A stretch of 64,000 nucleotides of DNA from a virus. Its lineage: Duplodnaviria > Caudoviricetes. The notes beneath the pieces were generated by a model. The model worked only from the letters and a program-made list of their open reading frames with translations. It made no database searches and was not told the origin of the DNA. The translations under genes and the position numbers were made by a program. The stretch covers positions 1 to 64,000 of the IMG/VR virus record IMGVR_UViG_3300031992_000046; one strand, written 5' to 3'. Every line of letters begins with the position of its first letter. Positions within the stretch are counted from its first letter, which is position 1. Shown one piece after another: positions 2,622-53,272 of this stretch.

Positions 2622-2650
2622 TTGACAATTATAGCACATTGGATTATACT
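2622..2650 (+). promoter_or_regulatory. sigmaA-type promoter
   Basis: TTGACA (2622-2627), 17 nt, TATACT (2645-2650); predicted start about 2657. Confidence 0.8.
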
Positions 2651-2656
2651 ATTAGT

Positions 2657-2895
2657 AGGGCGGAAGCCCACATCCCGGCTGTCGGCCCGACGAGACTGTT
2701 GGTACGCACGACACCTCGTCACAGTACCGCGCCTGCGGCGGCTAACGCAGGCAGCTGACAGCCGGGGCACCCGGGTAGGTTTTAAACCATTTTTAACCTC
2801 TGGAAGACACACCCGGGCACCCGGGTCGCAGGAGCGACGAAGTCGGGTTTCTGACAGCCCCGCAACTGTGCTTTCTTATGTACAACCAGAGATTG
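2657..2895 (+). ncRNA. Candidate structured non-coding RNA or long leader, family not recognised
   Basis: Begins at the predicted TSS; stems 2658-61/2666-69 (GGAA loop), 2674-86/2754-66 (13 bp), 2689-94/2715-20, 2731-37/2746-52, 2770-76/2811-17, 2825-29/2834-38; possible pseudoknot 2701-05/2724-28. Confidence 0.55.
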
Positions 2896-3052
2896 TTTTT
2901 CTCTTTAAGGCCGTGGCCGCTATCCCTTGTGCCACAAGGATTCTTTTTTCATTTTACAACCCTCATGGTTGTAAAACGTTGTAAACCCCTGTTTTGGACA
3001 CCCGCTATTTTTACTTCGAATTTCACTCTCACTGCTTTTGGAGGTGTGTATC

Positions 3053-3880
3053 ATGGCAGTCATTCTTGAACACGATAACTCCCGCTTTGGAACCGGTGGC
3101 AGCATCAACCTCGCCGCCTTGAAAGGGAACAACGCTCGCCGGAACGCTACCGGACTCATCGCCCCCGCCGCTCAGGAGACAAAGAGCACCGTCCTCGAGG
3201 AGCACTCCGCTGAGCCTATTAAGAACATGGAGGATATCATCCGCATCTCTCAGTTCCTAATCGAGAACGAACGGTATCGCGATAATATGCTCTTCATCGT
3301 CGGGATCAACTTTGGGCTGCGTGCGTCCGACTTGCTCGAGCTTCGGTTTTTTAACCTTATCACAGACTCGTTCGCTTTCCGCGACTGCTTCCCGGTGTTT
3401 GAGAAGAAGACTCGCCACACGCGTAAGCGTAAGCGCAACCGCTACGTCACTATCAATAACGCAGTCGTCGACGCCGTCACGCTTTATCTGGAACATACCC
3501 CCGGCGTTACGCTCTCCGATTATATGTTTACCTCGGAGAGTAACCACGGGGCGAATAAGGGGGAACCGCTCACCGCCTGGTCGGTCAACCGTATCCTGAA
3601 GGGTATCGCCCGGGATCTCGGTATCACCACCCGCGTCAGCACCCATACGCTTCGTAAGACCTTCGGTTATCATCAGATGGTCATGGGCGGAAACAGTCAG
3701 CGCACCCTGCTTCTGCTTCAGAAGATCTACGGCCACTCGACTCCCGCCCAGACTCTGGAGTATATCGGTATCACCGACGAGGAAATCTCCGAAGCTTATA
3801 ACCGCCTGAACCTCGGCTCGTCCACCGCGAACTACCTCGTTGACTCGCGTATGGTAGAACGCGATGCCGAGGTCGGATGA
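3053..3880 (+). CDS. Tyrosine recombinase
   Basis: GLRASD, HTLRKT, GHS and catalytic Y (TLEYIG); GGAGG before ATG 3053. Confidence 0.92.
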   Translation: MAVILEHDNSRFGTGGSINLAALKGNNARRNATGLIAPAAQETKSTVLEEHSAEPIKNMEDIIRISQFLIENERYRDNMLFIVGINFGLRASDLLELRFFNLITDSFAFRDCFPVFEKKTRHTRKRKRNRYVTINNAVVDAVTLYLEHTPGVTLSDYMFTSESNHGANKGEPLTAWSVNRILKGIARDLGITTRVSTHTLRKTFGYHQMVMGGNSQRTLLLLQKIYGHSTPAQTLEYIGITDEEISEAYNRLNLGSSTANYLVDSRMVERDAEVG

Positions 3881-4717: not shown

Positions 4718-5170
4718 ATGGCCGAAAACAGAGATATGAGGTGTGTTGCGCCTGGGGGCGCCGGTAGTCAGGGTAACATCAGTATGGTGATGTCTCATTA
4801 CCAGTGGGAGGGCGACACGCTCCTCGAAGATATGAGCTTAGAGATACGCGACGAGCGCGACCGCGTGATATCGGAGCTGGTGTGTAACCACTTCCAAATC
4901 GATTTGAGCGACCTCGGAGAGTGGGCAAAGCAGAAGAAAATGGGTCGGCAACAAGTGTACGACGGTATCGTGCTCGGTACGCCGGACGGACGCGAGTTTT
5001 ACGTCAGAGATATTCCGGCATTCGAAGAGGTGCGGGCAGAGATTTACGACAAAGAAACGATTGTAAGGGACGCCACGGTTACGATATGGGAGAACACTAA
5101 GACCGGGGCAGTATCGTTCGGCTGGAGCGGCGGGGAAGTCGCGGAGGACGAAAGTGGTACATGTATGTGA
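4718..5170 (+). CDS. Hypothetical protein
   Basis: AGGAGG SD before ATG 4718. Confidence 0.7.
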   Translation: MAENRDMRCVAPGGAGSQGNISMVMSHYQWEGDTLLEDMSLEIRDERDRVISELVCNHFQIDLSDLGEWAKQKKMGRQQVYDGIVLGTPDGREFYVRDIPAFEEVRAEIYDKETIVRDATVTIWENTKTGAVSFGWSGGEVAEDESGTCM

Positions 5171-6404
5171 CGCAGTGATGGGCTCCGGCAAGACCGAGAG
5201 CACTATCACATATATCAACGAGCACCGCGATTTTAAGTACGTTTATATCACCCCTTATCTCACTGAAGCGACGCGTATCAAAAAAGGGTGTCCCGACTTA
5301 CACTTCGTAGAGCCGAGCAATAAGCTGAAAGAGTTCAACTTCAAGAAGACACTCCACACCGCAGCCCTCATTCGTGAAGGGCATAACATAGCGACTACCC
5401 ACCAGGCGTTCAAGAACTACACTCACGAGACGCTCGAAGAGATACGCCGGCAGGGATACGTTCTCATAATAGACGAAAATGTCGACGTGCTTGAATCATT
5501 TGAGTTTCACCCCGACGATTTGCAGCTGGCTCTCGACGCGGGGTACGTTGCGGAGAATGATTCGATATACAGGATCTCCGAGCGGGGAGATATATATAAA
5601 GGAAGCGCGTTGCGCGATATGTTTAGCCTGCTCCGTTCACGCGAGCTTATGAAAGTGGTTGACGGCAAAGACAACAGCCTCTTCTTTTGGGCTCTTCCGC
5701 CCGACTTGCTCACTTCGTTCCGCGAGGTGTTCATCCTGACGTATCTGTTCAGTGGGCAGAGTCTGCATCACTTTATGAAGATATACGACATCCCATACGA
5801 GTATATCGGTATTGAGAAAACGGACAGCGGGTTCAGGTTCGGGCCATACCCGGGATATACACCGGATTACATATCCCATCTTGGCGAGAAGTTACATATT
5901 CTCGACAACGATAAGTTGAACGGGGTTGGGGACGACCCTTACGCCCTCTCGATGAGCTGGTATGAGAGAGGGGGCGACGGTGTGGCTCAGCTCCGCAGGA
6001 ACGTTGCGAATTGCTACAATAATATATGGCGCGACGTGCCCGCGGATAAACGGCTCTGGGGTGCTTACAACGGGGCATATAAGAAGATAAAGGGCAAGGG
6101 GTATGCGCGGTCGTTTCTGACGTTCAATGCGAAGGCGACCAACGCATATCGTGATAAAGACTGTCTGGTTTACATCGTAAACCTTTTCATGAACGTGAAC
6201 GAGAAAAAGTTCTATACGCTGCACGGCCTCGAAGTGGACGAAGACAGGTTCGCTCTTTCCACGATGATACAGTGGATATGGCGGTCGGCGATCAGGGAGG
6301 GAGGCGAGGTTAGCCTTTACATCCCCAGCAAGCGAATGCGCAGTCTGCTTGAAGGGTGGATTGAGCGTGTCGCAAAGGAAGGAAACACGGTCTATGAACG
6401 TTAA
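5154..6404 (+). CDS. SF2-like helicase / P-loop NTPase
   Basis: Walker A DAVMGSGKT, Walker B IIDE, C-terminal QWIWRSAIR (motif VI-like). Confidence 0.75.
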   Translation: MVHVCDAVMGSGKTESTITYINEHRDFKYVYITPYLTEATRIKKGCPDLHFVEPSNKLKEFNFKKTLHTAALIREGHNIATTHQAFKNYTHETLEEIRRQGYVLIIDENVDVLESFEFHPDDLQLALDAGYVAENDSIYRISERGDIYKGSALRDMFSLLRSRELMKVVDGKDNSLFFWALPPDLLTSFREVFILTYLFSGQSLHHFMKIYDIPYEYIGIEKTDSGFRFGPYPGYTPDYISHLGEKLHILDNDKLNGVGDDPYALSMSWYERGGDGVAQLRRNVANCYNNIWRDVPADKRLWGAYNGAYKKIKGKGYARSFLTFNAKATNAYRDKDCLVYIVNLFMNVNEKKFYTLHGLEVDEDRFALSTMIQWIWRSAIREGGEVSLYIPSKRMRSLLEGWIERVAKEGNTVYER

Positions 6405-6588: not shown

Positions 6589-6639
6589 CCCGAAAATTTC
6601 TTTTTTTAGTCAGCCAAAAACAATTATAGCACGATTGGG

Positions 6640-11815: not shown

Positions 11816-12838
11816 GTGGCAAGAAAGACGCAAATGAATAAGATAACGACGCCTGAGCTCCTGTCGCGTATTAACTCCGAAAACAAGTCGCTGCTTAACG
11901 ACTTCCTCGAATATCTGAGGTCAACTGGAAGGAGCGACGGAACGATAGCGTCGTACCAGAACGACATTGAAATCGCATTCGTGTGGAATCTTGAGCACAA
12001 CGGCGACAAGTCGTTTGTCGAGTGGACGAAGCGTAATGTTATCGCATATCAAAACTGGCTGCTTAACACTAATAAGAACAGCCCCGCGCGAATCCGAAGG
12101 CTAAAGGCGGCACTGTCTTCAATGAGCAATTACATTGAGAACTTGCTCGACGACGAGTATCCGAACTTCAGGAATATCATCAACAAGATAGAGAGCCCTG
12201 CGAACGCACCCGTTCGCGAAAAAACGGTGCTGACGGATGAGCAGGTTAAGTCGATGCTCGACGCTTTAATAAAAAGGAACAGAATAAAGGCGGCCTGTTA
12301 TATTGCGCTTGCCGCATACGGGGGAAGACGTAAGTCTGAAATATGCAGGTTTAGGGTCGACGATTTCGCCGACGACAAACTTGTGTGCGAGGGTTGCCTC
12401 TGGAAGAGCGCGCCGATTAAGACTAAGGGGCGTTCGCGTGGAAAGTTCATCCCCTGTTATACACTTGTTAAAAAGTTCAAGCCCTACCTCGATTTATGGC
12501 TGGCAGAAAGGAAACGTCTGGGTGTTGAAAGCGTGTGGCTTTTTCCAGCCGACGACAACCCCAACGAGATGCTGAAGATATCCACTGTCAATAGCTGGAT
12601 GAAAACAGCCTCGAGGCTTTCGGGGCTCGATATATATACGCACAGCTTTCGCCATTTCTATACGACAATGTTATCTAACGAAGGGATACCCGACGGGGTA
12701 ATCAAAGAGATACTGGGATGGGAAGATGTGTCGATGGTCGCAGTTTATAATGATAGGTCGACCGAAGATACGCTGGATATGTATTTCGGCGCGGATGGAG
12801 TAAAACGGAATGTCGCGAAGGGTCTGACCGATCTTTAA
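11816..12838 (+). CDS. Tyrosine recombinase (XerC/D-like)
   Basis: SAM-like N-terminus; GRRKSE, KTKG, HSFRH, LGW, VAVY. Confidence 0.9.
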   Translation: MARKTQMNKITTPELLSRINSENKSLLNDFLEYLRSTGRSDGTIASYQNDIEIAFVWNLEHNGDKSFVEWTKRNVIAYQNWLLNTNKNSPARIRRLKAALSSMSNYIENLLDDEYPNFRNIINKIESPANAPVREKTVLTDEQVKSMLDALIKRNRIKAACYIALAAYGGRRKSEICRFRVDDFADDKLVCEGCLWKSAPIKTKGRSRGKFIPCYTLVKKFKPYLDLWLAERKRLGVESVWLFPADDNPNEMLKISTVNSWMKTASRLSGLDIYTHSFRHFYTTMLSNEGIPDGVIKEILGWEDVSMVAVYNDRSTEDTLDMYFGADGVKRNVAKGLTDL

Positions 12839-14369: not shown

Positions 14370-17161
14370 GGGGGCTGCCCGCTGGGGCGCGTACTACAGG
14401 CTTCACCCGGTACAGTTTGTTAAAGACTACTTACACATTAACTTACACCTGTTTCAAAAAATCATTATAACGATGATGTTCTGGAGCAGGGTTTTTATAG
14501 TTATAGGATATCGTGGTCTCGGAAAGACTTTTATCAGTGCGATTTATTGCGTTATTAGGTGCATCTTATATCCTGGCACTCGTGTATGCGTGGCGTCAGG
14601 TACTCGAGGACAGGCTTAGTAAAATAGGCCGCCTTCATAGTAATATGAAGGGTAATATCTATTGAATTGCTGGGACACCCTTAGAGCTGGACACCCTACA
14701 GCATACGTTTGAAAAATAGCGCTGTGCGATGGTTAAAAAGTGTACAGATTGGGCAATCAGCAGCCAAGCTCCGAACAGGAGAAGGTTCAACGACCATCCC
14801 ATAGGGAGTAGTAGGACAAGCGACTGGTTCTGCGAAGCGGTAGACGTCCGGGAACGGATGAAGATATGGTCTGGTCTTTGCTGAAAGGCAAAGCATTCGG
14901 GTGGCGCCGAATAAAATTATTACTTAGGAGAGTTTGAAAAATGGCAACACCGATTGATTTGACCGGTAAAAGATTTGGACGCTTTGTTGTACTTTCCAGA
15001 GCGAAGAACAATAAGGAAGGCCGTACGATGTGGCGGTGTCTTTGCGACTGTGGCAACGAGAGGATTGTTCTCGGTAAAAGTCTCCGTAATGGGCACACCG
15101 CTTCTTGCGGATGTTTAAACAAGGAGCGTACAAGTGAAAGTTCGTTTAAAGATCGAACCGGAGAACGTTTTGGGATGTTAACAGTGATGGAACGAGCTGA
15201 CGATTATGTCGCTCCGAACGGGAAACACCACGTTCGCTGGTTATGCAAATGCGACTGTGGAAACAGCACGGTTGTAGATGTCTGTCAGCTTGTTAAGGGC
15301 GGAACGAAGTCGTGCGGCTGCTGGAAATCCGAGGCATCTCGTCAAAGAATGACTACCCACGGCGGACGGAATGACCGACTTTATCACACATTCGCAAATA
15401 TGAAAAATAGATGCTACAACCCCAACTCTAATGACTACAAGTATTACGGTGAACGTGGTATCAAAATATGTCAAGAATGGCTTGATAGTTATCAGTGTTT
15501 TAAAGAGTGGGCATATGCAAACGGATATAACGAAGACGCGCCTTGGGGTGAATGCACTATTGACAGAATAGATGTAAACGGCGACTATTCTCCTAACAAT
15601 TGTCGGTGGGTTAGCATGAAAGAGCAAAGCTTAAACCGACGAAATGTAATAAATAAACACAACGATTTTAGTCCTCGAAAAGATACTTCAGGAGCTGAAA
15701 CCACGCTCACCTGAACTTGCGGCCGAGCTTGACGACAGGGAGACCAAGGTTAACAACACGGTCGGCCAGGTCGTGTTCAAGAACACTTCGGTCATCAAGG
15801 TAGTCACGGCTTCGGACACCGCCAGAGGTAACCGTTGCAACGTGCTGCTTCTGGACGAGTTCCGCCTTCTGCCCAAAATTGTAATCGACACCGTTCTGAA
15901 TAAGTTCCTCAACTACAGACGTATGCCACAATACGAGGAGCTCACGGAAGAAGAGCGCAAGGCGGAATACAACAAGGAAAAGAATTTAACGATGTATTTG
16001 AGTTCCGCTTATTTCAAAGATTCGTGGGCGTTCACCAAGTGCGAAGATGTTTTTGACGCAATGGTAAGCGGTAAGCGCCGTCAGTTTATCTGCGGCTTCC
16101 CATATCAGCTCGGACTTGAGGAAGGTATCCTCGATCCCGAACAGGTTCTTGACGAGATGAGCGAATCGAACTTCAACGAAATTTCGTGGATGATGGAAAT
16201 GGGCGCGCTTTGGTATGGGTCTGAAGACGGCGCATTTTTTGATTATCCTTCAATATCAAAGAATAGGAAGATACTATTCCCGATGTTGCCGGATAGGCTG
16301 GCGTCACATCTACCCGGTGCCCCAGAGGTACGTATCGTGCCCAAGGAGAACGGGGTTAAGCGAATCCTCTCCGCCGACATAGCGCTGATGTCAAGTAGGA
16401 AGAACAATAACGACGCCACGTCGATTATCATAAATCAGCTTGTTCCCACCAAGGCGGGGCGGCTAACCAGCAACATCCTCTACGCGGAAACGCACGAAGG
16501 GTTGCGGACGGACGACCAGGCACTCATCATACGAAAACTCTACGACGAGTTTGACTGCGATTATATCGCGCTGGACGCCATGGGTGTCGGTATGGGAATA
16601 TACGATGCTCTGTCCAAGGATATGCTCGACCCGGAGACGGGTGAAGTTTATCCTGCGCTGTCGTGTATCAATAACACGGAAATGGCAGCGAGATGCGTCA
16701 ACCCGAATGCGGAAAAGGTTATATGGTCAATAAAGGCTGATCCTAACTTCAACTCGCGCTGCGCTATGGCTCTGCGCGAAGGTTTCCGCAATGGGCGTAT
16801 CAGGCTGCTTCAGTCTGAGCTTGACGCTATGGGTTCGCTTAGCGAACTCAAAGGTTTCAACTCGTTGAGCGAAAGCGAACGGGTAATGATACTTAATCCA
16901 TACATCCAAACAACGCTTCTGATTGATGAGCTGACCAAGCTTCAGCACGAGGAGGCGAACAATAAAATTAAAATTTACGAGAAGGCGGGAATGCGAAAAG
17001 ACCGCTACTCCTCTCTGCTTTACAACTATTATGTCGCAATGCAGGTCGAGCAGCGTATGAATCGCAGGTCGTATATCGACGAACACGTATCGGAGATGTT
17101 CGTTATTAAACCGCCGTCTAAAAGAGAAAGGAGGACAGTAGAGGGACGTGGAAGATATTAA
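14344..17161 (+). CDS. terL: Terminase large subunit, spliced join(14344..14616,15665..17161), 589 aa
   Basis: Exon 1 Walker A RGLGKT; exon 2 LLLDE, nuclease SADIA, IALDA, RKDRYSS; in-frame junction TRGQA|ILVLEKI. Confidence 0.92.
14617..15664 (+). ncRNA. Group I intron in terL
   Basis: P 14665-75, Q 14755-65, R 14785-96, S 14860-72; P1 GGCU|/GGCC with U.G pair; P10 UAAAAU/AUUUUA; P9.0 GU/AC; terminal G 15664. Confidence 0.93.
14941..15714 (+). CDS. Intron-encoded HNH-type homing endonuclease
   Basis: Two D(L/R)TGxRFG..CxCDCG..SCGC repeats and TIDRIDVNGDYSPNNCRW; AGGAG SD; located in P9. Confidence 0.8.
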   Translation: MATPIDLTGKRFGRFVVLSRAKNNKEGRTMWRCLCDCGNERIVLGKSLRNGHTASCGCLNKERTSESSFKDRTGERFGMLTVMERADDYVAPNGKHHVRWLCKCDCGNSTVVDVCQLVKGGTKSCGCWKSEASRQRMTTHGGRNDRLYHTFANMKNRCYNPNSNDYKYYGERGIKICQEWLDSYQCFKEWAYANGYNEDAPWGECTIDRIDVNGDYSPNNCRWVSMKEQSLNRRNVINKHNDFSPRKDTSGAETTLT

Positions 17162-23497: not shown

Positions 23498-25355
23498 TTG
23501 GGAATCTGGGACGTATACGACGAAAGGATGGCGATACGCGGCGAGACGCGCCGCGAGACCGCGCTGAAGCGCGAGAAGCGAACGCTTAATAGCAAAGTAC
23601 CCAACAGTCTCTCCTATCAGTGCGTGACACTGTTTGACCGGGAACACGGGTATAACATCTCCAGCGATGAGATGCTGAGCGGAGCTATTCAGCAAAACGT
23701 CGCCATCATCAACTCCGACAACTTAAATGAAAAGATGATATTCTCGCTGCCCGATGAGGATTTCGAGCAAGGCAGCCTTGTATCGTGGATGGACAACTAC
23801 TGGATAATTACAGAGTTGGACGCCAACAAAACCGTTTATACGCGAGCGAAAATGATTCAATGTAACTATCTGCTGAAGTGGGTGTCGGCAGAGGGTAACA
23901 TCATTGAGCAGTGGAGCATCGTGGAAGACGGAACGAAATTAAAGCATACGCCGGTATGCAATAGTTTGGTGCACGGGAAACTGTGCGCATAAAGAACTCC
24001 TTTAATTGCTGGAAACTCCTTAGAGCTGAACGACCACAGCGTAGAAATGAAATAGGTTCAAACGCGATGGTATAAGAAATGTTCAGATTGGACAATCAGC
24101 AGCCAAGCCGCGAACAGCGGAAGGTTCAACGACTATCCCGGACGTGGGAGTAGGAGCAAGCGCTCCGAAATGGGGAGCCCTAAACTTCGGCTTTGCCGAG
24201 GCATGGTGAAGATATAGTCTACACTGCACAGAAATGTGTAGAGACCAGATGGTCGGACGAGTTTAGCAAACTCGAATTATGCAAACTACAAAAACAAATA
24301 AGAGGTGATGGATGTGAAGGCAAACTGGTGTGTTTATGCCCATATCAATAAAATAAATGGCAAAATCTATGTTGGCATAACTTCTAAGACAAAGCCCGAG
24401 CATCGCTGGAATTCGGGGCGTGGATACAAAGAGAATCCGCACTTTTACCAGGCTATCCAGAAATATGGGTGGGATGGGTTTGAGCATATTGTTCTTTTCC
24501 GTTATCTCGACGAAGCGTCAGCCAAACAGATTGAGTGTAAGTTCATTAAAGAATGGCAGACACAGGATCGAAGGTTTGGGTACAATATGACTTCCGGCGG
24601 AGACGGGACGCCCAATTATCATCCTTCTGCCGAAACCCGTTCTAAGTTGTCAGCAGCAAGAAGGCGCGAGAATCTCTCGGAGGAAACTTTGAAGAGACGC
24701 TCTGAGGGACTGCGAGGCAGAAACTTTACCGAGGAGCATAAAAGAAAGATAGGGGAAGGTAACAGCAAACCACTTCTTATGTTTGATAAATCTGGAAATT
24801 TTTTGAGGCGGCTTAAATCAGCACGCGAAGCTGAGGAGACGTTTGGTATTTCACACGCTCACATTTCTCAGTGTTGTAATGGCTGGCGCCAAAGTGCCGG
24901 CGGTTATAAATGGCAGTTTGCATAATAATTCTTAATAAATGGATCTCACCGGCGAATATGAGGATAGAAACTTTATCGTGACCCGCGGCGACTCGCGTAT
25001 TGCGGTTACCGTGGCAAGAAACGCCGAGACTGCGAAGCTCGGCAGAACAAACAGATTCATTATTGACGACCCCGCGTCACAGGTGCAGCTTTCGTACCTG
25101 CTGACCAAGCCGCTTAAACTCGGCTGGTCGTTCAACGATTACGGCGCTTACAAGTTTGTCATGCAGGAGGTCAACTCGACCAAGGATGACAACTTCGAGC
25201 TTCAGATTGCTGATTACTATAAATATTTCCCGCAGAGCGGGTCGGGTTCTTCCGGCGGAACGGACGGCTCTTCGAGTGCCGGAGGCGATGCCGGGACCGG
25301 CAACAGTGGCTCGACGCCGACAGGCAGCGGGAACGGAAGAGAGGGGTGGCTGTAA
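23498..25355 (+). CDS. Putative head-closure/neck protein, spliced join(23498..23939,24943..25355), 284 aa
   Basis: TTG after AAAGGAGG; intron removal gives in-frame EDGTK-Y(T|AT)-LTGEYEDR. Function from position. Confidence 0.8.
23940..24942 (+). ncRNA. Group I intron in the head-tail gene
   Basis: P 24004-15, Q 24094-104, R 24124-35, S 24208-20; P1 AAAU|/GUUU; P9 with GAAA loop; P9.0 CA/UG; terminal G 24942. Confidence 0.92.
24305..24925 (+). CDS. Intron-encoded GIY-YIG homing endonuclease with NUMOD3/NUMOD1-like tail
   Basis: CVY..NKINGKIYVGIT, GYNMTSGG, HPSAETRSKLS, ISQCCNG..SAGGYKW. Confidence 0.9.
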   Translation: MMDVKANWCVYAHINKINGKIYVGITSKTKPEHRWNSGRGYKENPHFYQAIQKYGWDGFEHIVLFRYLDEASAKQIECKFIKEWQTQDRRFGYNMTSGGDGTPNYHPSAETRSKLSAARRRENLSEETLKRRSEGLRGRNFTEEHKRKIGEGNSKPLLMFDKSGNFLRRLKSAREAEETFGISHAHISQCCNGWRQSAGGYKWQFA

Positions 25356-51541: not shown

Positions 51542-53272
51542 TTAGATTCGAACTCCAACAGAGAAGCGGTATGTTTCTGTGTGAGAGTCTACCCGGCGAT
51601 TAACTCGTGTGAAAGAAATATTTCGTATGGGTAAGATGTTCTTAATCGTGTGTCCCGTACGAAGTCCTTTTGCCAAGGTTTTTGACAACGTTTCGCCTGT
51701 AAAGATTTTCACTTCAAGCGCAGCGGTTGTTTCGTTAATCGGGGTGACGAAAATTTTGTCGATATAGGTGTCGACAAACCCTTTGTCGACCATACTTTTA
51801 TTTGCTGATTTTGCGGCGTCCGACAGAGTCTTGCGGATTATTTTAATCTGTTCGCTAATGGACTCTTGGGACGCCGCTGCTTCTCTCAGTTCTCCCAGCT
51901 CACTCTCTGCGTCAGATATCTCCTTGGTGCATTGTTCGTTTAACCGCAGAAAATCCTTATCGCTTAGCTTACCTGATACATTGTACTCCAAGAGTTTAGA
52001 CTGCTTTTTGAGGGCTACGTCGCGCTTCGCCTCAGTCTTCTTGATTTGGGACTCTATGTTCCGGTCTCCGAAGGCCTCGCGGTACATTGCAACGTATTCC
52101 TCGATAAGCAGTTCGACGTTGATTTCGGTTTCGGTAAATACCTCGAGAAGTATCGGTTTGATTTCATTTTCGTAGATTGAAAAAGAGGGGCAGTGGTCGG
52201 CACCGTTATTGATTTTGCCCGAGCAAATCCACAGACTGTTAACGTTTCCTTTCTTATCTTTTACCGCGCGTCGGTAATATGGCTTCCCACAGTGCGTGCA
52301 AATCAGTTTTCCGGTCAGCAGATTGGGGTGGTTACATATCCCTTTGCGGGATTTAACGTCGTCACTGCGCTTTGTGAGCACGCGATTTGCGGCGTCCCAC
52401 AATTCTTCGGTTACAATTGCAGGGACGATATCGCCTGTTTCGTCTTTGAACATTACCCACTCCTCAGGGGGCAGGAATTTTTGCTTCTTGGAGAACATAT
52501 CGACGATTTTTACTTTATTCCCGACGTAGTACCCTTTGTATTTCGGGTTGGCTATGATGCCCGAAAGGGTATTGTGCATGATTTTATTGCCGTTGTGGTT
52601 ACGATAACCTCTCTCATAGAAGATTTCTTCGATTTGTTTCATACTGTATTCGCCTGTGGCGTACAGTTCGAACAGTTCTTTGACCATTTCGGCTTGTTCG
52701 GGATCGATTTGGAGCCTCCCGCCGTCTTTAATGTATCCGAAAATGCGGCTGTTGCCGAGAACAACCGACGATTTTATCGCTTGCTGATGCCCGAAACGCA
52801 CTCTCGAGGACAGTTTGCGCAATTCGTCTTGTGCTATCGATGACATAATCGACAGGCGAAGCTCGGAATCTTCGTCGAAGGTGTTTATGTTGTCGTTCTG
52901 GAAGTAAACACCGACACCTGCGGCGAGAAGTTGCCTTGTGTAACGTATCGAGTCAAGGGTATTACGTGCAAAACGCGAGATTTCTTTCGTAATTATCAGG
53001 TCAAAGTCGCCGTTTTCGGCGTCGGCGATCATACGGTTGAAGTTCTCGCGCTTTTTTGTCGACATACCCGATATTCCCTCATCAATATATCCCGGGCAGT
53101 ATGTCCAGTTGGGATTTTTTGAGATGAAATCCTTATAATACGAGACCTGATTGTCCAAAGAGTTGATTTGTTCGTCGCTCTCTGACGAAACTCGGGCGTA
53201 AAATGTTACGCGGAGCGGAATATCGTAAACAGATTTAGTTTTTAGCGAGGTTCGGATGTCGTGGATGTCCAT
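51542..53272 (-). CDS. Large serine recombinase (integrase)
   Basis: YARVSS, DEGISG, KEISRFARN; recombinase domain; Zn ribbon CTHCG; coiled coil. Confidence 0.95.
   Translation of the reverse strand: MDIHDIRTSLKTKSVYDIPLRVTFYARVSSESDEQINSLDNQVSYYKDFISKNPNWTYCPGYIDEGISGMSTKKRENFNRMIADAENGDFDLIITKEISRFARNTLDSIRYTRQLLAAGVGVYFQNDNINTFDEDSELRLSIMSSIAQDELRKLSSRVRFGHQQAIKSSVVLGNSRIFGYIKDGGRLQIDPEQAEMVKELFELYATGEYSMKQIEEIFYERGYRNHNGNKIMHNTLSGIIANPKYKGYYVGNKVKIVDMFSKKQKFLPPEEWVMFKDETGDIVPAIVTEELWDAANRVLTKRSDDVKSRKGICNHPNLLTGKLICTHCGKPYYRRAVKDKKGNVNSLWICSGKINNGADHCPSFSIYENEIKPILLEVFTETEINVELLIEEYVAMYREAFGDRNIESQIKKTEAKRDVALKKQSKLLEYNVSGKLSDKDFLRLNEQCTKEISDAESELGELREAAASQESISEQIKIIRKTLSDAAKSANKSMVDKGFVDTYIDKIFVTPINETTAALEVKIFTGETLSKTLAKGLRTGHTIKNILPIRNISFTRVNRRVDSHTETYRFSVGVRI

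Follow-up and report, generated by a model that had tools for sequence, protein, structure and literature searches.

A structured, lineage-restricted RNA element, very probably of a new family, upstream of a tyrosine recombinase gene in an SPbeta-like phage of the ruminant gut

This study reports that the region between a strong promoter and a tyrosine recombinase gene in an SPbeta-like phage very probably encodes a functional RNA of a new family, which, judging by the sequences compared, is restricted to one phage lineage. The lineage-specific body of the RNA covers positions 2657-2886, nearly the span marked in the preliminary description of this DNA, because positions 2887-2985 form a shared module. 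The element belongs to a known general kind, the regulatory RNAs of phage early regions, and is new as a family; with it, the control region of SPbeta-like phages of Firmicutes in the ruminant gut gains a well-folded RNA of about 230-290 nt that had not been catalogued before. To our knowledge, Bacillus models are the only source of what is known about regulation in this phage group. Should the element gate read-through into the early operon, including the gene of the YonO-type polymerase, an RNA switch would stand atop the phage programme, and the different structured leaders found in the same slot in different lineages suggest a modular, exchangeable RNA control element. The narrow distribution of the element and the lack of covariation limit the claims made on it.

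The window, that is, the whole stretch analysed here, covers the initial 64 kb of an IMG/VR virus record of 100,409 bp that is classed as linear and about 85% complete, and DNA of the phage was found in sheep, goat and bovine gut metagenomes of at least 16 studies. The phage is SPbeta-like as judged from its gene content, and its host is probably a Firmicute, given the consensus -35/-10 promoters and the strong GGAGG ribosome-binding sites. The large serine recombinase at ~52.8 kb is likely the SprA-like integrase of the phage, while the 344-aa gene with a tyrosine recombinase fold at 12.2 kb is possibly an MrpR/SroF-like repressor.

Promoter, fold and shared module of the element

A strong promoter had been described about 400 nt before the recombinase ATG, and this was confirmed as a TTGACA-17-TATACT promoter at 2622-2650, with an A/T-rich stretch upstream of it, and an ATG at 3053 (Table 1). 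Transcription would likely start at ~2657, so that ~396 nt separate the predicted start from the ATG. Both promoter hexamers are identical in the relatives L049, L050 and L052, with the sequence upstream of them 10-16% diverged. A promoter scan found no sigma-70-like promoter between the terminator (2925-2949) and the ATG; a promoter for the phage's own polymerase may lie downstream of the terminator.

The view of a highly structured RNA was borne out by z-scores of -4.3 to -5.8 on the plus strand against about -2.4 on the minus strand. Compared with shuffled sequence, 2650-2900 folds with z -4.34 on the plus and -2.40 on the minus strand, 2657-2950 with z -4.25 on the plus strand, and the 5′ domain (2657-2768) with z -5.80 and -2.51, respectively. 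For the 5′ domain, the minimum free energy structure makes up 34% of the ensemble as one dominant fold, the centroid is the same, RNAalifold on four relatives yields this fold as well, and three of its G-U pairs would turn into A-C mismatches if the opposite strand were transcribed. The middle part (2763-2850) folds without strand preference, with z -2.4 on the plus and -3.8 on the minus strand.

The GNRA hairpin, the 13-bp closing stem, the GGTAC/GTACC complementarity, the direct repeat and the CTCTGG/CCAGAG pair of the preliminary description were all recovered where it had placed them. A pseudoknot between the loop GUAC and 2724-27 (GGTAC 2701-05 with GTACC 2724-28) is possible in the modelled fold. 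The direct repeat GGGCACCCGGGT lies at 2765-76 and 2815-26, and has three matches with at most one mismatch in the 64 kb against 0.16 expected. Globally, the predicted fold is bistable, as GGCUGUCGG (2677-85) could pair with CUGACAGCC either at 2755-63, which closes the 5′ domain, or at 2851-59, which encloses nearly the whole body, at similar energies. The complementarity of CTCTGG (2798-2803) to CCAGAG (2886-91) reaches from the AU-rich loop into the shared module.

Table 1. Positions of the element, its parts and other features in the window
Feature	Position	Strand	Description or basis
Extremely Ala-rich protein, 680 aa	172-2214	-	C-terminal sigma-70 region 4/HTH
Promoter of the Ala-rich 680-aa gene	2278-2250	-	perfect TTGACA-17-TGnTATAAT
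Sigma-70/SigA-type promoter	2622-2650	+	-35 TTGACA 2622-27, 17-nt spacer, -10 TATACT 2645-50; 11/12 consensus matches
5′ domain	2657-2768	+	z-scores, RNAalifold, site placement
GNRA (GGAA) hairpin	2658-2669	+	GGGC-GGAA-GCCC
Closing stem of 5′ domain	2674-86/2754-66		13 bp, one G-U; 14 bp with U2673-G2767
Hairpin inside closing stem	2689-94/2715-20		inner stem 2697-2701/2709-13, loop GUACGCA
Hairpin inside closing stem	2731-37/2746-52
Middle domain	2763-2838	+	direct-repeat stem and hypervariable hairpin
Stem CCCGGGU/ACCCGGG	2770-76/2811-17		made from the two GGGCACCCGGGT direct repeats
AU-rich loop, 34 nt			closed by CCCGGGU/ACCCGGG stem; carries CCUCUGG (2797-2803)
Hypervariable hairpin	2825-38	+	GUCGC-AGGA-GCGAC
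3′ part of lineage-specific body	2839-2886	+	second CUGACAGCC copy 2851-59, hairpin 2867-71/2880-84
Shared 3′ module	2887-2950	+	hairpin AGAGA 2888-92/UCUCU 2900-04, motif UUUAAGG
Terminator	2925-2949	+	hairpin CCUUGU-GCC-ACAAGG 2925-39, U-tract 2941-49; promoter/terminator scan
Operator-like DNA site	2956-2985	.	ACAACC-N5-GGTTGT 2956-72 and third half-site GTTGTAAA 2978-85; outside RNA body
Tyrosine recombinase, 275 aa	3053-3880	+	catalytic domain only; PF00589 residues 64-242; PHROG 216 integrase
YonV_C protein	5154-6404
YonO-type single-subunit RNA polymerase, 912 aa	6640-9378		PF05183
Second, longer tyrosine recombinase-fold gene	12227-12760	+	344-aa open frame
Group I intron	14608-14893	+	Rfam 86 bits, above gathering score
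Group I intron	23930-24241	+	Rfam 71 bits, above gathering score
Large serine recombinase	52772-53203	-	582-aa open frame; ~50 kb from RNA element

The body is followed by the shared module, in which the predicted terminator hairpin is weak (about -6 kcal/mol; -6.2) and is overlapped by a competing helix, GUGGC 2913-17 with GCCAC 2931-35. Viewed as an attenuator, the region holds a hairpin with a U-tract and an alternative helix, and the hairpin is weak. The module 2887-2985, composed of a hairpin, (T)CTTTAAGG, a GC hairpin with a T-run, ACAACC-N5-GGTTGT and the third half-site, recurs with 81-84% identity at genome positions 85848-85950 on the minus strand, where it follows a retron-type reverse transcriptase gene and a structured stretch and precedes a 101-aa open reading frame (85.8 kb). 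In that second copy the competing helix reads GUGCC/GGCAC, with both sides changed between the two copies compared. The reverse transcriptase itself (470 aa; genome 86359-87771 on the minus strand, outside the window; L053:6360-7772) scores E 4.7e-43 against the NCBIfam retron St85 RT and E 7e-38 against PADLOC RT_II-A; ~290 nt of non-coding sequence closed by a 9-bp inverted repeat, CAUUGUAAU/AUUACAAUG, stand upstream of it like retron a2/a1, and the ~450 nt of structured non-coding sequence downstream fold with z -3.5.

Versions of the module also occur in L003, L022 and L044, and an AGAAC/GTTCTAAA variant of the operator stands upstream of other-clade recombinases in L004, L005, L007, L008 and L021. 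The site is invariant in close relatives. Its half-site shifts from GTTGTAAA to GTTCTAAA along with the recombinase clade, which suggests that the cognate DNA-binding protein is encoded in the vicinity. An SPBRE-type operator is an intergenic box of ~15-26 bp that is repeated in the phage genome and bound by the recombinase-fold repressor MrpR/SroF (PMC10516654; 10.1101/2025.11.27.690993). The ACAACC/GGTTGT-type site, with two copies in this genome and clade-specific variants in relatives, suggests by its sequence that 2956-2985 is an SPBRE-like operator (PMC10516654; 10.1101/2025.11.27.690993).

Distribution and conservation

No match to 2600-2960 came up by BLASTN among 50,697 phage records, a gapped pattern of the two direct repeats found none in IMG/VR, and the exact core 23-mer matched neither in IMG/VR nor in 185,579 prokaryotic genomes (GTDB). 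The covariance model R1 of the 5′ domain found no second copy of this domain in the phage's own genome. The body is present in five contigs of the same 90% protein cluster (L048-L052; 90-95% nucleotide identity) and in contigs from four further sequencing runs, and is missing from all 45 recombinase-anchored loci (16 viral and 29 metagenomic) at 55-69% recombinase identity, as searched by sensitive BLASTN and by R1. Therefore, the RNA is lineage-specific and not a hallmark of the recombinase family.

That family is large, with 2,595 proteins at E < 1e-30; the gene lies 1-2.5 kb from the contig end in most of its IMG/VR relatives, and peptide patterns found no relatives in GTDB genomes. The recombinase lacks a core-binding domain, begins with ~55 disordered residues, and has the catalytic Arg, Lys, His-x-x-Arg, His and Tyr all present in an alignment to XerA (4a8e). 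It differs from MrpR/SroF in keeping the catalytic Tyr and in lacking the core-binding domain (PMC10516654; 10.1101/2025.11.27.690993), and since the catalytic residues are kept and that domain is missing, it is not their orthologue. In many members of the family a promoter lies 23-62 nt (~40 nt) upstream of the start codon, and in five further relative lineages (L019/L003, L004/L005, L007/L021, L025 and L044) the strongest promoter stands 219-405 nt before it. Leaders in the nearest recombinase clade are unrelated and less structured (z +0.1 to -3.4 vs -7.5 here): in L003 (2700-2995), L004, L005, L007 and L025 a consensus promoter is separated from the operator ahead of the recombinase by unrelated leaders of 220-340 nt, with z -2 to -3.4, and a long hairpin, GACGCGAGUAGGAAC...GUUCCUACGAGUCGUC, occurs in those of L004, L005 and L007. 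The 69% relative L003 shares the -35 element with its flank (TTGACAATTATA) and the module, yet has a different body of ~190 nt.

Within the five close contigs, the body 2657-2886 and the third codon positions of the recombinase gene diverge, respectively, by 2.1% and 12.3% in L051 (Fisher P 4e-5), 2.2% and 15.9% in L048 (P 1e-6), 2.6% and 11.6% in L052 (P 1e-4), 3.5% and 14.5% in L049 (P 1e-5), and 6.1% and 23.6% in L050 (P 3e-8). Conservation of the body, 4- to 7-fold above that of synonymous-type sites a few hundred bases off in the same contigs, indicates strong purifying selection on the RNA, and as these relatives form one species-level cluster, a recent sweep or recombination could exaggerate it. 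In L050 the body stays conserved but the 5′ UTR between the operator and the ATG has diverged by 26%, which makes base pairing between the two an unlikely mode of action. Homology with L049, L050 and X14 starts at ~2570-2600, with other HTH-protein genes left of there, and the Ala-rich gene is swapped for unrelated HTH proteins in L049 and L050; the left arm of the divergent control region is therefore hypervariable, and the promoter, RNA and recombinase travel together, since the left flank alone is replaced in L049, L050 and X14.

Substitutions are placed in accordance with the predicted fold. None of the seven variable sites in the 5′ domain falls in a pair (P = 5e-4), nor does the insertion in X10, and the 99 nt of 2843-2941 hold a single substitution in six sequences, A2856G in L052, which is G-U compatible. 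C2727U (L048; in the proposed pseudoknot) and C2827U (L051) turn G-C into G-U, C2814A in L049 (C2813 in the fold of 2650-2900) breaks one pair of the CCCGGG stem, and the hairpin 2825-38 is a hot spot where most substitutions and indels of the relatives fall. No pair in the body shows a double-sided compensatory change across the six sequences, so folding energy and the placement of substitutions are what support the structure. The proposed check by covariation upstream of homologous recombinases hence came out in part, namely that substitutions avoid the stems in close relatives, whereas the body is missing at 55-69% identity and no covarying pair was found.

Comparison with known families and systems

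The element had been reported as unmatched to tRNA, tmRNA, SRP or ribozyme, and searches with Infernal and ARAGORN agree. The Rfam 15 covariance models, whose families include riboswitches, ribozymes, 6S, SRP, RNase P, ROOL, GOLLD, raiA, C4 and msr, gave no match to the element at the gathering threshold nor at E up to 10, and the best sub-threshold scores were 14-18 bits vs thresholds of 45-55 (E 0.11 to 7.9). The two group I introns, both away from the element, are the only above-threshold Rfam matches in the window, in which ARAGORN found neither tRNA nor tmRNA. No credible open reading frame crosses the element: the frames are Arg-rich and lack a Shine-Dalgarno sequence, the long ones start upstream of the transcription start or without a ribosome-binding site, and the sole frame that opens with an ATG (2878) is not preceded by a Shine-Dalgarno sequence and continues across the terminator. 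Indels shift every frame, namely an extra T behind 2672 in X10 and a net loss of one nucleotide at 2826-33 in X14 and L050, and a protein-coding gene was rejected on these frameshifts, on the lack of starts downstream of the transcription start and on the near-invariant 99-nt stretch. The proposal of a novel phage noncoding RNA or leader is upheld as far as such comparisons reach, by the lack of an Rfam, tRNA, tmRNA or coding assignment, by the purifying selection and by the stems that substitutions avoid.

Several specific classes were rejected as well. A retron msr-msd RNA, prompted by a 14-bit RT-5 match and the reverse transcriptase, would have this enzyme adjacent and a1/a2 terminal inverted repeats enclosing msr and msd hairpins able to template msDNA; the only reverse transcriptase lies ~84 kb off in the record (~15 kb if the two ends of the record adjoin) and is preceded by a region of its own that lies between inverted repeats, the closing stem of the element encloses just 67 nt, and the element has no sequence similarity to the region next to the enzyme. 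An IS110-type bridge or seek RNA was rejected because the neighbouring enzyme is a PF00589 tyrosine recombinase and not a DEDD plus Tnp enzyme, and because no stretch of 15 nt or more complementary to the element, as target- and donor-pairing loops would need, turned up elsewhere in the genome. For a type I toxin-antitoxin transcript (bsrG/SR4 or yonT/SR6 type), there is no small hydrophobic frame with a ribosome-binding site, and the promoter scan found no antisense promoter at the element. An attP or prophage junction is unlikely, as no att-like direct repeat of at least 15 bp ties the region to the far end or the rest of the record, and the GC-rich first 2.2 kb are the Ala-rich 680-aa frame, not demonstrably host DNA; an attP is not expected here either, since the likely integrase is the large serine recombinase ~50 kb away.

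Among known systems, the P1/P7 c4 and P4 CI RNAs are small structured immunity RNAs derived from the 5′ portion of a transcript that is early or confers immunity, with lineage-specific sequence and short repeated complementary boxes, and are processed to 70-80 nt. The element resembles them in having GGCUGUCGG with two CUGACAGCC partners on one transcript, but differs in the absence of a sequence or Rfam match, in box order, in its length of ~290 nt and in having no demonstrated target box near a ribosome-binding site. With HK022 putL/putR and the Bacillus EAR RNA it shares the position of a folded RNA behind an early promoter and before a terminator and a multi-gene operon, but the put RNAs are ~70 nt with two hairpins, no similarity was detected, and the sequence gives no sign of a modified polymerase. 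Likewise, it resembles the terminator/antiterminator attenuators of Firmicutes in the long leader, weak terminator, mutually exclusive helices and lack of a promoter between terminator and gene, but matches no known ligand- or protein-binding leader family. IS110/IS621 bridge RNAs are also structured RNAs just upstream of a recombinase gene, whereas the enzyme here is a tyrosine and not a DEDD recombinase, the RNA is not found across the enzyme family and guide-like complementarity is lacking. The AimX RNA of the SPbeta/phi3T arbitrium system is similarly a non-coding transcript in a lysis-lysogeny control region (PMC10516654, PMC8612738), from which the element is set apart by description, with no AimR/AimP genes beside it and a consensus, constitutive-looking promoter.

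Candidate functions in the early region

Based on these findings, we tentatively prefer the reading that the element is a structured leader, or a leader-derived small RNA, that regulates rightward early transcription, and a cis-acting leader with a persisting terminated product is ranked slightly above a purely trans-acting small RNA. The host RNA polymerase would transcribe ~290 nt from the promoter at 2622-2650 as the start of the rightward early unit; most transcripts would stop at the weak terminator and leave a stable folded RNA, and read-through transcripts would carry the recombinase gene and possibly continue to the YonV-like and YonO-like polymerase genes. The body would act in cis by setting the amount of read-through: CUCUGG (2798-2803) in the AU-rich loop could pair with CCAGAG (2886-91) and open the AGAGA/UCUCU hairpin, the freed UUAAGG (2906-11) could compete for the 5′ arm of the terminator, the helix GUGGC/GCCAC could add to its disruption, and the two alternative partners of GGCUGUCGG would make the body bistable. 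The production of the RNA, its end point and every step of this relay are what we infer. The leader reading draws on the lack of a sigma-70 promoter before the ATG, the weak terminator, the competing helix and the long promoter distances in relatives. Pairing of the body with the recombinase ribosome-binding site, at -17.7 kcal/mol for the loop, falls within the top ~10% of comparable sites and was not distinguishable from controls.

A possible, though less probable, explanation is that the element is a free-standing trans-acting small RNA gene, a moron-like cassette with its own promoter and terminator that targets host or phage mRNAs or proteins, for instance as a lineage-specific immunity or regulatory RNA, with the recombinase expressed from the downstream module. 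The strong promoter and the hairpin with U-tract do bound the folded part, the body is far more conserved than the UTR behind it, and L003 has the same promoter and module around a different ~190-nt body, as exchangeable specificity RNAs would show. The terminator, moreover, belongs to a repeated terminator-plus-operator module, which is also found ahead of another gene and elsewhere simply separates two genes; a free-standing small RNA fits this equally well. On the other hand, the terminator is weak, the recombinase has no separate sigma-70 promoter, and a search of the phage genome brought up no convincing target, the best duplexes of the AU-rich loop reaching ~-25 kcal/mol, within the chance tail of 40,000 windows. 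That the region acts instead at the DNA level, as a cluster of protein-binding sites for recombination, replication or packaging, is improbable; GGGCACCCGGGT occurs twice and GCYGACAGCC three times (one inverted) at spacings of 50 and 96 bp, either strand of the middle domain folds equally well, protein-bound DNA would also be highly conserved, and the recombinase gene adjoins, with many relatives' contigs ending 1-2.5 kb upstream of it. The 5′ domain, however, folds in a strand-specific way with G-U pairs, promoter and terminator directly flank the element, the likely integrase is the serine recombinase, no direct repeat of at least 15 bp links the region elsewhere, and the 23-mer is missing from the 185,579 genomes.

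It is quite improbable that the sequence is a non-functional GC-rich spacer whose fold and conservation reflect recent ancestry or hitch-hiking, since the 4- to 7-fold excess of conservation, the non-random substitutions and the z of -5.8 speak against it, even with its one narrow lineage and the lack of double-sided pair changes in its favour. The suggestion that the RNA is a partner of the recombinase family did not survive its absence from the 55-69% loci and the many promoters placed just 23-62 nt before a start codon. A cofactor or guide RNA that supplies DNA-site recognition, or a scaffold in place of the missing core-binding domain, would suit the gene order, the common direction of transcription, the catalytic-domain-only enzyme with an intact active site, and the other long structured leaders in this slot upstream of the closest recombinase clade, but an ordinary inverted-repeat DNA site beside the gene changes with the recombinase clade and the element has no complementarity of at least 15 nt elsewhere in the genome, so we regard it as the least probable reading of all. 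Very improbable, too, is a lineage-specific specificity determinant, either as an RNA partner of the recombinase replacing the core-binding domain or as an immunity factor made of RNA that divides SPbeta-like rumen phages into hetero-immunity groups, the latter of which would explain the same promoter and module around unrelated bodies in different lineages.

Apart from the element, a motif of ~18 nt, ACAATTATAGCAC(A/G)ATTGG, was observed at 2625-2643, in the spacer of the RNA promoter, and at 6620-6638, directly upstream of the start of the YonO-like polymerase gene, and may be the site of a common regulator.
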